In this document: positions 6,522-20,707 of the stretch, one piece after another
How the letters are laid out: every line of letters begins with the position of its first letter
How positions within the stretch are numbered: the first letter of the stretch is position 1
NCBI GenBank assembly: GCA_036171815.1
Contig: JAVHRV010000128.1
Location: forward strand, 1 to 27,360
Length of the DNA: 27,360 nt
Direction: 5' to 3'
Source: Patescibacteria group bacterium
GTDB taxonomy: Bacteria; Patescibacteriota; Patescibacteriia; Patescibacteriales; UBA12465
Notes under the pieces: model-generated
Seen by the model: only the letters and a program-made list of their open reading frames with translations
The model's database searches: none
What the model was told of the DNA's origin: nothing
Made by a program: the position numbers and the translations under genes

Positions 6522-7787
6522 TTAAAATTTTAAAATCTTCTTTAATTGACTGGCCTGGGCCTGACCAATCACCGCTAAATTTAAATTATGATTCACAAAA
6601 ATTTTCCGCGCCGTTTGCTGTAAGTCGCTGGGGGTAATCTTATTCATAATTTTTAAAAATTCACCGGGCGTAATTATCTGACGGCGCAAAATCGCTTGTC
6701 GAGCGTACCAAGTCGCCAAATTATCGGTAGCTTCCATTTGTAGTAACGATTTTCCCGCTAAAAGATCTTTGGCTCTTTTTAATTCCGAGATACCGACTAG
6801 CTCACTAGTCAATCGCTGGTACTCCGATAAAATAATCTTTATCGCCGTTAGGGTTTTATCTTTAGGCACGCCGGCCTGCGTAGTTAAATAGCCAGAATCC
6901 GAATAAAATTCACTAGCTGTTCGCACATAATAAGCTAGACCATTTTTCGCGCGTAAATTAATAAACAAACGTGAACTCATTGATCCGCCTAAAATAATAG
7001 ACAATAATTTAATCTTAAATTCTTCCGGGTGACCAATCGCCACCGTCCGCACGCCTAAAGACAAATTTACTTGATCAATCTTTTTATTCACAATTTTTAA
7101 TCGCGGACCTTTTTGAACTTCTTTAACCACTAATTTATCGCCCCACTTATTCTTAGGGACTGTGGCGAACAGCCGCGCGACGGCTTTTTTATCGGCCTCT
7201 TTAAAACCACCAGCAATAATTATATAAATACTTTTAGTGCCATATTGCGCCTGAAAATAACGTAAAAAGTCAGACCGCTTAAAACGATGAATATTTTCTT
7301 TAGTACCAATTGTTTCCCAGCCAGCCGGTGCATCGCCATAAAGACAGGTTTCAAAAATATCTTCCACGTGCATAAGAGGATTATCTTCATACATATTTAG
7401 CTCTTCGATAATTACCCCTTTCTCCCGCTCAATCTCGGCCGATTCAAACTTAGAATTAAGGAGCATATCGCTAACAATATCTAGCGCTTCTGTTAATTTC
7501 GGAGCCGCCACTTTAACCCAATAACCAGTAAATTCTTTAGCGGTAAACGCATTATATTCTCCCCCTAAAGAATCTAGTTCGCTGGATAAGGCTAAAGTAT
7601 CAGGCCGACGCTTTGTTCCTTTAAAAAACATATGCTCTAAAAAATGAGATAAACCATTATTAGCCCGAGTTTCATATTTAGAACCGGTTTTTATCATAAT
7701 TAAGGCCGTAACCGTTCGCGCCCCCTTAACCGGGATAGTAATTAAGGGGATTTTATTTGACAAAATATCAATTTTATATTTATTCAT
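6522..7787 (-). CDS. M16 (pitrilysin/insulinase family) zinc peptidase
   Basis: Inverted zinc motif HFLEHMFFKGT, NAFT, EREKGVIIEE, MSSRLF, GLAYYV. ATG at 7787 preferred to TTG at 7799. Stop is 1 nt from the capA-like start (TAAtATG). Confidence 0.93.
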   Translation of the reverse strand: MNKYKIDILSNKIPLITIPVKGARTVTALIMIKTGSKYETRANNGLSHFLEHMFFKGTKRRPDTLALSSELDSLGGEYNAFTAKEFTGYWVKVAAPKLTEALDIVSDMLLNSKFESAEIEREKGVIIEELNMYEDNPLMHVEDIFETCLYGDAPAGWETIGTKENIHRFKRSDFLRYFQAQYGTKSIYIIIAGGFKEADKKAVARLFATVPKNKWGDKLVVKEVQKGPRLKIVNKKIDQVNLSLGVRTVAIGHPEEFKIKLLSIILGGSMSSRLFINLRAKNGLAYYVRTASEFYSDSGYLTTQAGVPKDKTLTAIKIILSEYQRLTSELVGISELKRAKDLLAGKSLLQMEATDNLATWYARQAILRRQIITPGEFLKIMNKITPSDLQQTARKIFVNHNLNLAVIGQAQASQLKKILKF

Positions 7788-17915: not shown

Positions 17916-18794
17916 TTAATGATACTCAAAGGGCGGAATTATAAACTGAATACTTCCGGCCTGATCTGTTCTTTTAACGGTAATTCCTAATTTCGCCGCC
18001 CGAGCTAGAAGGTCGGGATCAGGATGCCCGAATTTATTATCAGCGCCGACAGAAACAACTAACCAAACGGGCCGAACCAGCTCTAAAAATCTAAGGCTAT
18101 TAGCACTTTTAGAACCATGGTGCGAGGCTTTTAAAACATTGGCGGTTAAATTAAGACCCGAAGTTGAAAGAGTTTGCTCAACTTGGCTACTGTTATCCCC
18201 GGCCAATAAAAATTTTTGTCCTTGGCAATTTAAATTAGCTATTAAAGAATTATTTTCATCTTTTTTTATTCTTAAAACTTGAGGATTCCACAAATCTAAA
18301 CTACAGCCAGCGGAAAAAAATAATTGTCGGCGACTCGTTAAAATCGTTGTCGGTATATTCCGAACCTTAACGACAGCTAAAAGCTCCTCTAAAACGGGCG
18401 AACGATAATCGCTAGGAGCGTAAATTAAATGTTTAACTTTATACCGGCGCACAATTTCAATTAGCCCGGTAATGTGATCATCGTGAGAATGACTAAAAAT
18501 TAGATAATCAAGCTGACGGCGATAAAAAGGTAAAAAATCGCCCAAGCGTCGCAGAATCTTATTATCCGGCCCGCCATCAATTAAAATGATTCGGCCCGTC
18601 GGAGTTTTTATTAAGCTAGAGTCGCCTTGTCCGACATCCAGGAAAGTAACCGCCAGAGAACCGGCGGCGTTAGGTAAGATAAAAATTAAAAAAAATAAAA
18701 CTAATAATACCGACAAAATACCACCAAAAATTAAAAAATACTTAAAACCTGATTTTTTAATCCCCGCTCGTAATTTTTGAATAATTAATGGCAT
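17916..18794 (-). CDS. Stand-alone ComEC/Rec2 C-terminal-type MBL-fold hydrolase with a single N-terminal TM
   Basis: VTFLDVGQGDSSLI, ILIDGG, SHSHDDHITG, ENNSL, LLAGD, LKASHHGSK, VSVGADNKFGHP, RTDQAGSI. No ComEC membrane channel domain. Confidence 0.88.
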   Translation of the reverse strand: MPLIIQKLRAGIKKSGFKYFLIFGGILSVLLVLFFLIFILPNAAGSLAVTFLDVGQGDSSLIKTPTGRIILIDGGPDNKILRRLGDFLPFYRRQLDYLIFSHSHDDHITGLIEIVRRYKVKHLIYAPSDYRSPVLEELLAVVKVRNIPTTILTSRRQLFFSAGCSLDLWNPQVLRIKKDENNSLIANLNCQGQKFLLAGDNSSQVEQTLSTSGLNLTANVLKASHHGSKSANSLRFLELVRPVWLVVSVGADNKFGHPDPDLLARAAKLGITVKRTDQAGSIQFIIPPFEYH

Positions 18795-18901
18795 CCTCCT
18801 ATTATAAAAAAGGTGGAATTAAAAAAATATAAAATAAAAATCGTCTAAAAATAAATTTCGATTGCCTAATCATCGCCTCATTAATTAGTAACTCCTTACA
18901 A

Positions 18902-18929
18902 AAACCGCCCTGATTCCGCAGGACGGTTT
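18902..18929 (-). terminator. Intrinsic terminator downstream of the histone-like gene
   Basis: Minus strand AAACCGTCCTG-cggaat-CAGGGCGGTTT then T: 11-bp stem with one U-G pair, which is a mismatch on + and so supports minus-strand use. Confidence 0.7.
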
Positions 18930-18986
18930 CTGTATAATTTTCAAATCAAACAAACTTATTAATTAATAATTAATAAATTTTAAAAA

Positions 18987-19118
18987 CTATTTTCTTTTTT
19001 TAGTCGCTTTTTTAGCTGCCTTCTTAACTACCTTTTTTACTACCTTTTTTACTACTCTCTTAGCAACTTTCTTTTTCGCAACTTTTTTCACCGCTTTTTT
19101 AGCCGCTTTCTTTTTCAT
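18987..19118 (-). CDS. 43-aa Lys/Ala/Val-rich histone-H1-like basic protein (not in the ORF track)
   Basis: Manual translation MKKKAAKKAVKKVAKKKVAKRVVKKVVKKVVKKAAKKATKKRK* (22 K + 2 R), with SD, promoter and terminator all present. Confidence 0.88.
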   Translation of the reverse strand: MKKKAAKKAVKKVAKKKVAKRVVKKVVKKVVKKAAKKATKKRK

Positions 19119-19122
19119 AATA

Positions 19123-19130
19123 TCACCTCC
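19123..19130 (-). promoter_or_regulatory. Shine-Dalgarno site GGAGGTGA of the histone-like gene
   Basis: Minus strand gagggGAGGTGAtattATG; the 3' end of GGAGG is 7 nt from the ATG. Confidence 0.85.
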
Positions 19131-19177: not shown

Positions 19178-19206
19178 ATTATATAACTAATTAAAATAAG
19201 TAGCAA
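19178..19206 (-). promoter_or_regulatory. Sigma70-type promoter TTGCTA-N17-TATAAT for the histone-like gene
   Basis: -35 TTGCTA (19206-19201), exactly 17-nt spacer, -10 TATAAT (19183-19178). Confidence 0.7.
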
Positions 19207-19233
19207 TAGTTTTTTCAAAAAAAAATAAAAAAA

Positions 19234-19259
19234 TCCCCACTTGATTCCGAAAGCGAGGA
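19234..19259 (-). terminator. Intrinsic terminator downstream of glyQS
   Basis: Minus strand TCCTCGCTT-tcggaatc-AAGTGGGGA followed by a long T tract. Two G-U pairs that are mismatches on + indicate minus-strand function. Confidence 0.7.
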
Positions 19260-19321: not shown

Positions 19322-20707
19322 TTAAATCTTCGCCGTTAAAAATTTTGATAATTCTTCGATATTAATACGTTCTTGTTTCATGGTATCCCGATCGCGAATC
19401 GTCACTTCATTATTTTCTAAGGTGTCAAAATCAATAGTCACGCAATAAGGCGTACCTATTTCGTCTTGCCGCCGATAACGCTTACCAATATTTCCGTTAT
19501 CATCAAATTCACAACGCCAAGTTAATTTTAATTCGTTAAAAACCGCGCGCGCTTTAGCGACTAATTCCGGCTTATTCTTTAATAAGGGGAAAACGGCTAC
19601 TTTAATCGGTGCCAATTTTGGTTTTAATTTTAAAACTATTCTAATTTCTCCCTCTAAATCTTCTTCCTGGTACGCCTCGCTTAAAACCGCTAAAAAAGTC
19701 CGACCAACCCCGGCCGAAGTTTCGACCACGTGGGGAATAAATTTCTGATTCGTGACGGAGTCGAGATAATTTAATTCTTGTCCCGAATGTTTACTATGCT
19801 GAGTTAAATCGTAATTACCCCGAGCATGTATTCCTTCTAGTTCTTTAAACCCGAAAGGGAAATTATATTCAATATCATAGGCTTCTTTAGCATAAAAGAC
19901 TAAATTCTCATGCTTATGCCATTTTAAATTACCAGCCGCAATTCCTAAATCAAGATAAAACTGAAAACGAATCTGACGCCACTCTTCATAATACTTCAAG
20001 TCATCGCCTGGTTTTACAAAATATTGCATTTCCATCTGTTCGAATTCCCGAGTGCGAAAAATAAATTGCCGGGCAGTAATCTCATTACGAAAAGCTTTAC
20101 CAATCTGAGCGATACCAAAAGGAATCTTCACCCTGGCCGTGTCGACGACATTTTTAAAATTAACATAAATCCCCTGGCAGGTCTCACCGCGCAAATAAAC
20201 CGGTTCTTTGCTCCAATCCCCCGTAAAATTTCCTAGATTGGACTGGACTAGTAAATTAAATTTTCGACCCGGCGTAAAATCCGATGCGCCACAGCTTGGA
20301 CATTTTATTTTTTCTCTATTGGTATTAAAAATCTGATTAATTTCTTCTTCGCTCATTTTCTCATCGGCAAAAATCCCCGCTTCTTCTAGCAGCGCGTCAA
20401 GGCGTAAACGAGTATGACATTTCTTACATTCTGTTAACGGATCAGAAAACCCCGTCACGTGACCGGAGGCCTCCCAGATTTTCGGGCTCATAAAAATCGC
20501 CGAATCTAAACCTACGATATCATCGCGCAATTGGGTCATTGCTTTCCACCACTCCTTCTTAATATTATTAGCTAATTCGACGCCATAAGGACCAAAATCA
20601 TAAACGGCGGCGAATCCTTCATAAATTTCGGAAGACGGAAAAATAAAACCCCGCCTTTTTGTTAAAGATATTATTTTATCCATTTTATCTAGGACTTTTT
20701 TACTCAT
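19322..20707 (-). CDS. glyQS: Glycine--tRNA ligase, alpha2 (eukaryote/archaea-like) type
   Basis: KRRGFIFPSSEIY, YDFGPYG, WEASGH, LRGETCQG, FGIAQIGKAFRNEI, FRTREFEQME, ELEGIH, IGKRYRRQDEIGTP. Confidence 0.97.
   Translation of the reverse strand: MSKKVLDKMDKIISLTKRRGFIFPSSEIYEGFAAVYDFGPYGVELANNIKKEWWKAMTQLRDDIVGLDSAIFMSPKIWEASGHVTGFSDPLTECKKCHTRLRLDALLEEAGIFADEKMSEEEINQIFNTNREKIKCPSCGASDFTPGRKFNLLVQSNLGNFTGDWSKEPVYLRGETCQGIYVNFKNVVDTARVKIPFGIAQIGKAFRNEITARQFIFRTREFEQMEMQYFVKPGDDLKYYEEWRQIRFQFYLDLGIAAGNLKWHKHENLVFYAKEAYDIEYNFPFGFKELEGIHARGNYDLTQHSKHSGQELNYLDSVTNQKFIPHVVETSAGVGRTFLAVLSEAYQEEDLEGEIRIVLKLKPKLAPIKVAVFPLLKNKPELVAKARAVFNELKLTWRCEFDDNGNIGKRYRRQDEIGTPYCVTIDFDTLENNEVTIRDRDTMKQERINIEELSKFLTAKI

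Follow-up and report, generated by a model that had tools for sequence, protein, structure and literature searches.

The C-terminal domain of linker histone H1 and the tail-only H1 proteins of kinetoplastids are rich in Lys, Ala, Pro, Val and Thr, are disordered, and carry about +0.5 charge per residue. In bacteria, chlamydial Hc2 (HctB; PF07382, NF038052) is a protein of 165-237 aa that is made of Lys/Ala-rich short tandem repeats (pentamers), has no acidic residues, and varies in length with the number of its lysine-rich repeats (PMC2848022). The Streptomyces nucleoid protein DdbA combines an H1-like domain with a DksA-like domain (PMC3643593), while the H1-like AlgP of Pseudomonas is a long polycation of Lys/Ala/Pro (KPAA) repeats that localizes to polyphosphate granules and spaces them (PMC9239181). 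In Parcubacteria, the ribosomal protein uS19 has an Ala/Lys-rich C-terminal extension that is specific to this lineage (PMC9297842). Here we describe a gene for a 43-aa protein that resembles each of them in part.

The gene lies in a window (the whole stretch of DNA analysed, 27,360 nucleotides) from a patescibacterial genome of 779 kb that is distributed over 145 contigs, is 90% complete and has a G+C content of 38.9% (the window is its contig C128); the window DNA is represented in groundwater metagenomes. The closest GlyRS loci come from MAGs that for the most part bear the label Patescibacteria or Parcubacteria group. Its product has 43 residues, of which 22 are Lys and 2 Arg by direct count, and neither Asp nor Glu is present, giving a net charge of about +24. 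The original prediction of a 43-aa ORF with 24 basic and no acidic residues is thereby borne out, the minus strand being the one detail to add. So are its three VVKK units, which are consecutive, and its DNA repeat GTAGTAAAAAAG, which occurs in exactly two tandem copies and for which none of 100 shuffles of the window gave even one match. Tandem Repeats Finder reports periodic arrays of 12 nt and 24 nt. No other ORF of the whole genome is as basic as this one, which is also alone among ORFs of its kind in having a ribosome-binding site. On the same strand, the tRNA synthetase gene glyQS (GlyRS, 19322..20707) lies upstream and a ComEC-like gene (17916..18794) downstream, the latter encoding a protein of 292 aa with a metallo-beta-lactamase fold of the ComEC C-terminal type; these neighbours offer no functional hint. 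The features of what we call the polycation gene are collected in Table 1.

Table 1. The polycation gene and its signals (positions in the window)
Feature	Position	Strand	Basis
glyQS terminator: hairpin and T-run, insulates the polycation gene	19224..19259 (also 19234..19259)	minus	terminator scan
Promoter: -35 TTGCTA, 17-nt spacer, -10 TATAAT; A-tract directly 5' of -35	19178..19206	minus	match to consensus
Shine-Dalgarno GGAGGTGA, ATG 4 nt further 3'	19123..19130	minus	invariance in orthologous leaders
Polycation CDS, 43 aa, Lys/Ala/Val, stop codon included	18987..19118	minus	ORF listing and orthologues
12-nt tandem repeat GTAGTAAAAAAG, two copies, coding VVKK VVKK	19032..19055	minus	repeat scan and shuffles
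3'-UTR motif ATTTGAAAATTATAC, just 5' of the terminator stem	18932..18946	minus	invariant alignment columns
Intrinsic terminator of the polycation gene: 15-bp stem, 6-nt loop, A-/T-tract arms (bidirectional type), ending TTTTTGT	18898..18933	minus	pairing over 29 loci

The polycation ORF is a genuine conserved gene. A search with the single protein found a look-alike in 13 of 24 same-genus genomes, all of them between glyQS (GlyRS 70-86% identical), which they directly follow, and the ComEC-like gene. In the 11 genomes without a match, the DNA 3' of glyQS was inspected separately: six have the corresponding DNA assembled, and each of these holds a Lys-rich ORF of 45-54 aa, while the contig stops at glyQS in four and glyQS was not found in one. 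With contig ends and the missing glyQS set aside, an orthologue directly 3' of glyQS is present in 20/20 same-genus genomes with the region assembled. When 200 genomes of the order were searched with a profile, the family grew by further members of the genus and by four other genera, two of which retain the order glyQS, polycation gene, ComEC-like gene with GlyRS only about 50% identical (loci L037, L038, L045 and L046). A locus scan based on GlyRS added six genus members with an orthologue (L056-L061); in the same scan, 17 other Patescibacteria-like loci and 57 loci from other phyla had no ORF of this kind up to 1.5 kb from glyQS. A syntenic homologue at the glyQS-comEC locus, which the original prediction had named as the thing to look for, is present both in the genus and beyond it.

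The surroundings of the gene show some variation of their own. In one genus member (L002, 1837-2577, minus strand) an extra ORF of 246 aa lies on the opposite strand between the polycation gene and the ComEC-like gene, and a gap of similar size is found at the equivalent position in L003, L005, L011 and L013. Assemblies often break in the spacer between glyQS and the polycation gene, as noted for loci L022, L026, L028, L030 and L042; a contig end lies there in 4/10 relatives, and in one genome (G002) the glyQS half and the polycation-gene half sit on different contigs.

Across 32 orthologues of 34-118 residues, the frame is always open. The residues are nearly all Lys, Ala, Val, Pro and Thr, with rare Arg, Ile, Leu, Ser, His and Gly, and not one acidic or aromatic residue occurs. 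Basic residues make up 46-58% (56% in the window protein), net charge ranges from +18 to +54, and proline counts run from 0 to 12 per orthologue, the prolines lying in units of the AKKP and APKK type, the window protein being proline-free. A low-complexity, A-rich sequence of this kind might be thought to hold a chance open frame or a non-coding RNA, the more so as an invariant motif in the 3'-UTR (discussed below) resembles an RNA or promoter element. Against this reading, the ribosome-binding site and ATG are invariant, the frame is held through every length change in the 32 orthologues, and the non-coding frames across the ORF are interrupted by stop codons in the ORF listing. Synonymous variation is also heavy while amino-acid composition is retained: AAA (329) is used alongside AAG (207), none of the Ala or Val codons (four each) goes unused, and pairwise differences at codon positions 1:2:3 amount to 517:731:3148, counts in which pairs are non-independent and the protein-guided alignment favours synonymous differences. 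In the closest pair (window versus L033), the differences are 0:5:14. That the locus is untranslated seems highly improbable on this evidence.

The gene was also not missed by gene callers, as the original prediction had supposed, since a 43-residue product with the same translation is on record as a called gene in a public assembly that is nearly identical to the window (JAVHOL010000011.1, GCA_036170015.1). In a representative library, one orthologue (P0007) has been called with an over-long N-terminus, and the nearest ESM Atlas clusters consist of 'hypothetical proteins' of 30-46 aa from Minisyncoccota and Moraniibacteriota, with 55-127 members each. Despite the product recorded at the locus, an exact-sequence look-up in the protein collection returned neither the window protein nor three orthologues, and a word-seeded protein search with the window protein gave nothing at E <= 0.01. 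An exhaustive profile search of 1.84 billion representatives yielded five matches only, which is no guide to family size because the composition filters of HMMER suppress such sequences. The gene is thus predicted in public data, yet is without a name, a family model or an informative annotation, and our literature search found no description of such mini-proteins in Patescibacteria.

The signals that surround the coding sequence make it a complete stand-alone transcription unit, as had been proposed, with the TTGCTA-17-TATAAT promoter, the perfect Shine-Dalgarno sequence and the terminators on both sides all found as described; over about 30 orthologous loci, promoter, ribosome-binding site and terminator are either invariant or covarying. 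The promoter (19206..19178) matches the consensus at 10 of 12 positions. Over 20 loci of the genus, the A-tract with CTATTGCTA, the TATAAT, the GGRGGTGA and the ATG are invariant or nearly so, while the remaining leader drifts. The combination of AAAAACTATTGCTA and TATAAT, likewise (near-)invariant in the genus, is retained in other genera, and GGRGGTGA is unchanged in 20/20 aligned orthologous leaders. For the terminator of the polycation gene, 98.4% of cells in the stem are paired over 29 loci and six pairs show compensatory changes, values of pairing and covariation that were reached by 0/500 shuffles. A hairpin equivalent to the glyQS terminator is visible at orthologous loci. Rfam gave no match in the polycation-gene region, and no DnaA box (TTWTNCACA) was found near the gene, the single site of the window being at 7084; nor did the 90%-complete genome yield a SET domain.

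Two further elements of these non-coding regions deserve mention. In the window's genus, the glyQS terminator and the polycation-gene terminator have the loop CGGAATCA in common; a genome scan ruled out that this loop is a genome-wide terminator repeat, and it is not kept in other genera. In the leaders of a sister genus (L037, L038, L039, L043 and L045), a conserved palindrome, GGGAAATTTCCC, directly adjoins the Shine-Dalgarno sequence on its 5' side, some 15-30 nt ahead of the ribosome-binding site, and is missing in the window's genus. It might fold into a hairpin and so modulate translation.

Several proxies bear on how strongly the gene is expressed. The genome as a whole makes very weak use of Shine-Dalgarno sequences: among its 694 ORFs of at least 100 aa, 443 have not even a 4-mer match, GGAGG occurs in 15 and GGAGGTGA in none, which makes the GGAGGTGA of the polycation gene an outlier. 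This gene is the one place in the 779-kb genome where an ATG with a substantial open frame comes after GGAGGTGA. An exact TTGCTA-N17-TATAAT is found at one further site of the genome, upstream of a tRNA gene (contig C117). High expression, an element of the original prediction, is plausible in view of this unique GGAGGTGA-ATG context and of the promoter form shared with a tRNA gene, and the polycation gene is probably strongly expressed and efficiently translated. RNA evidence is weak and comes from a single metatranscriptome, from sediment, where a contig of 117 nt matches 19005..19112 at 93% identity; this contig is strandless and might reflect DNA carry-over. In the source metagenome, word depth rises from about 7.5 to 80-100 over 19178..19219, i.e. 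at the promoter and roughly 10-fold relative to the flanks, the pattern expected if the promoter sequence is common to many co-occurring relatives, which is probable.

The same features would suit a rather different protein, namely a ribosome- or RNA-associated polycation. As a free peptide it would do what the Lys/Ala extensions do on ribosomal proteins of this lineage and shield rRNA phosphates, possibly offsetting reduced rRNA or missing ribosomal proteins, or it would act as a general RNA chaperone. An exceptionally strong ribosome-binding site and a promoter form common to a tRNA gene would be in keeping with a constituent of the translation machinery, and glyQS, the gene upstream, encodes a tRNA synthetase. 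Moreover, Lys/Ala tails of similar style are found in the same genome at the end of bL28 (C143, 5968-6258), at the start of uS11 (C143, 32-484) and at the end of a NusA-like protein (C24, 850-2238), and also on a zinc-ribbon protein (C76, 3609-4136); the terminus of the bL28 tail is very like the C-terminus of the polycation. Together with the Parcubacteria-specific extension of uS19 (PMC9297842), which shares residues, repeat style and lineage with the polycation, these tails on ribosomal proteins and NusA make RNA a serious alternative, indicated at least as much as DNA. However, they are tails of 15-35 residues on folded RNA-binding proteins, whereas the polycation is free-standing and has its own promoter and terminator. 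In addition, it matches no ribosomal-protein family in NCBIfam or Pfam, its gene is outside any ribosomal-protein operon, and a three-fold length range (34-118 aa) with freely varying proline content would be unusual for a fixed ribosomal binding site. On balance, we regard a role on ribosomes or RNA, the chief alternative to DNA, as possible rather than probable.

How far the protein deserves to be called histone-H1-like, as it was originally, depends on what is meant by the term. By composition the name is apt: with a threshold of at least 40% Lys/Arg, the window protein (56% basic) and its orthologues (46-58%) qualify, the rest are mainly Ala, Pro, Val and Thr, acidic and aromatic residues are absent, and short tandem repeats are present. 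Like H1 tails, the orthologues draw on K/A/P/V/T with AKKP- and PKK-type units, carry about +0.5 charge per residue and are of a kind expected to be disordered, a helix being possible on binding. As a statement of homology it fails, since no model of H1, Hc1, Hc2 or the Burkholderia type is reached. No Pfam or NCBIfam family is matched by the window protein, HU/IHF (PF00216) included. Against the Hc2/HctB models (PF07382 and NF038052) it gives no match at E <= 10, and a 99-aa orthologue scores 13.4 bits (cut-off 40) and 11.5 bits (cut-off 135), respectively, which is sub-threshold and compositional. With the Burkholderia-type H1-like model NF038053, the best orthologue reaches 12.8 bits versus a cut-off of 80 and the window protein has no match. 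When the window protein and four orthologues were run against the whole of Pfam at E <= 10, neither Hc1 (HctA) nor the winged helix of linker histones H1/H5 appeared, and 43 aa are too few for a globular domain. Unlike H1, the polycation lacks the winged-helix globular domain and its cell offers it no nucleosomes, and the resemblance to H1 tails is, on sequence grounds, convergent or compositional, homology not being demonstrable; H1-tail-like polycations are a functional class and not a homology family.

The comparison with Hc2 runs along similar lines. Lys/Ala-rich short tandem repeats without acidic residues, a length polymorphism that arises through repeat number (as described for Hc2 in PMC2848022) and a presumed binding of DNA by charge are common to both. 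The polycation differs in its size (43 aa, and 34-118 in orthologues), in its repeats, which are mostly tetramers, and in belonging to another phylum, to an organism for which a developmental cycle is not known, as well as in the lack of a significant model match. The architecture described for DdbA recurs in a protein of 320 aa from the representative library (P0004), retrieved with the profile of the polycation orthologues, in which about 130 residues of VKK/AKKP repeats are followed by a C-terminal DksA/TraR C4 zinc finger. These repeats are nearly those of the polycation, but the window protein corresponds to the repeat region alone, without the second domain.

AlgP, whose Lys/Ala/Pro repeats and H1-like character also recall the polycation, suggests in turn that the latter might bind polyphosphate granules as AlgP does in Pseudomonas (PMC9239181). 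AlgP is a long protein associated with such granules, whereas in the window's 90%-complete genome no polyphosphate kinase was found, neither PPK1 above the family cut-off nor PPK2, which makes polyphosphate an unlikely partner, and we consider this role extremely improbable.

Structural comparison raises one more alternative. AlphaFold models the window protein as one continuous helix (residues 2-42, pLDDT 87), 18-residue windows have a high helical hydrophobic moment, and the sole match in a profile search of the PDB is the spider antimicrobial peptide cupiennin-1a (E = 0.042). The polycation could on this basis be a membrane-active or host-directed cationic peptide, an amphipathic helix of the antimicrobial type that an episymbiont would use on its host or on competitors. 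However, the cupiennin match is weak and compositional, and there is no signal peptide, leader or nearby transporter gene. Mean hydrophobicity is also strongly negative (-0.3 to -0.7), Val and Ala are the only apolar residues among 46-58% basic ones, and orthologues contain up to 12 helix-breaking prolines. The absence of an export signal, the very hydrophilic character and the prolines of the orthologues make a secreted membrane-active peptide very unlikely.

What is conserved in the family is charge density and not a fold, as would suit an intrinsically disordered polycation with electrostatic binding to polyanions. Ultra-small groundwater cells have few ribosomes, as seen by cryo-EM, so that the chromosome is their dominant polyanion. 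With the chromosome as the largest polyanion in such cells, the main target of the protein is probably DNA. Further points in favour of DNA are the repeat type, shared with H1 tails and with Hc2, whose length polymorphism is also the same (PMC2848022), and the fusion of nearly these repeats to a DksA/TraR zinc finger in P0004, as in the nucleoid protein DdbA (PMC3643593); moreover, no polyamine-synthesis genes were found that might fill the role instead. We infer both binding to nucleic acids and a preference for DNA. We put at about an even chance that the protein is a non-specific nucleic-acid polycation which acts mainly on DNA and aids nucleoid compaction. Its paired lysines would bind nucleic-acid phosphates non-specifically, with no specific fold required; on DNA, charge would be neutralized and compaction of the nucleoid helped, alongside two HU proteins, in the manner of the C-terminal H1 tail or of chlamydial Hc2. 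In evolution, xxKK-type units would be gained and lost, changing the length of the protein, under selection on charge density rather than on exact sequence. The two HU genes of the genome (on contigs C70 and C45) cut both ways: the polycation is not the sole candidate nucleoid protein and would be an addition to HU instead of a replacement, and a cell that has kept two HU genes is not obviously in need of a further compactor, which counts against a role on DNA.

A further conserved element of the locus is the motif in the 3'-UTR. ATTTGAAAATTATAC is invariant across 29 loci, including those of the genera with a GlyRS identity of only about 50%, while the adjoining hairpin sequence covaries freely. 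It is degraded in two orthologues (L008 and L009) and occurs once in its own genome. Its reverse complement includes TGTATAAT, the octamer of the sense-promoter -10 region in most orthologues (the window's own -10 region reads TATATAAT), and so could be a conserved promoter in antisense orientation, directed back over the polycation gene; no conserved -35 accompanies TGTATAAT in the complement. The motif may be such a promoter or an RNA-level element of the 3'-UTR.

In the genome, no spermidine synthase and no Orn/Arg decarboxylase were found. The lack of these genes for polyamine synthesis leaves room for the polycation to supply the bulk counter-ions that polyamines supply elsewhere. It would then be a gene-encoded polyamine substitute, made from the strongest-initiated mRNA of the genome and tuned in dose via the antisense promoter or 3'-UTR element just described. 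Although we consider this unlikely, it would, if true, represent a distinct and regulated solution to charge balance in minimal cells, going beyond yet another histone-like protein.

Nothing known is overturned by the polycation gene. What it adds is that bacterial H1-tail-like proteins extend down to mini-proteins consisting of the tail only. Ultra-small Patescibacteria have very little volume and a very small proteome for packing about 1 megabase of DNA, and we know of no study of how their nucleoid is organized. In such cells a conserved and apparently strongly expressed polycation of 34-118 residues, short enough for the peptide to be synthesized, would be a cheap candidate for nucleoid packing.
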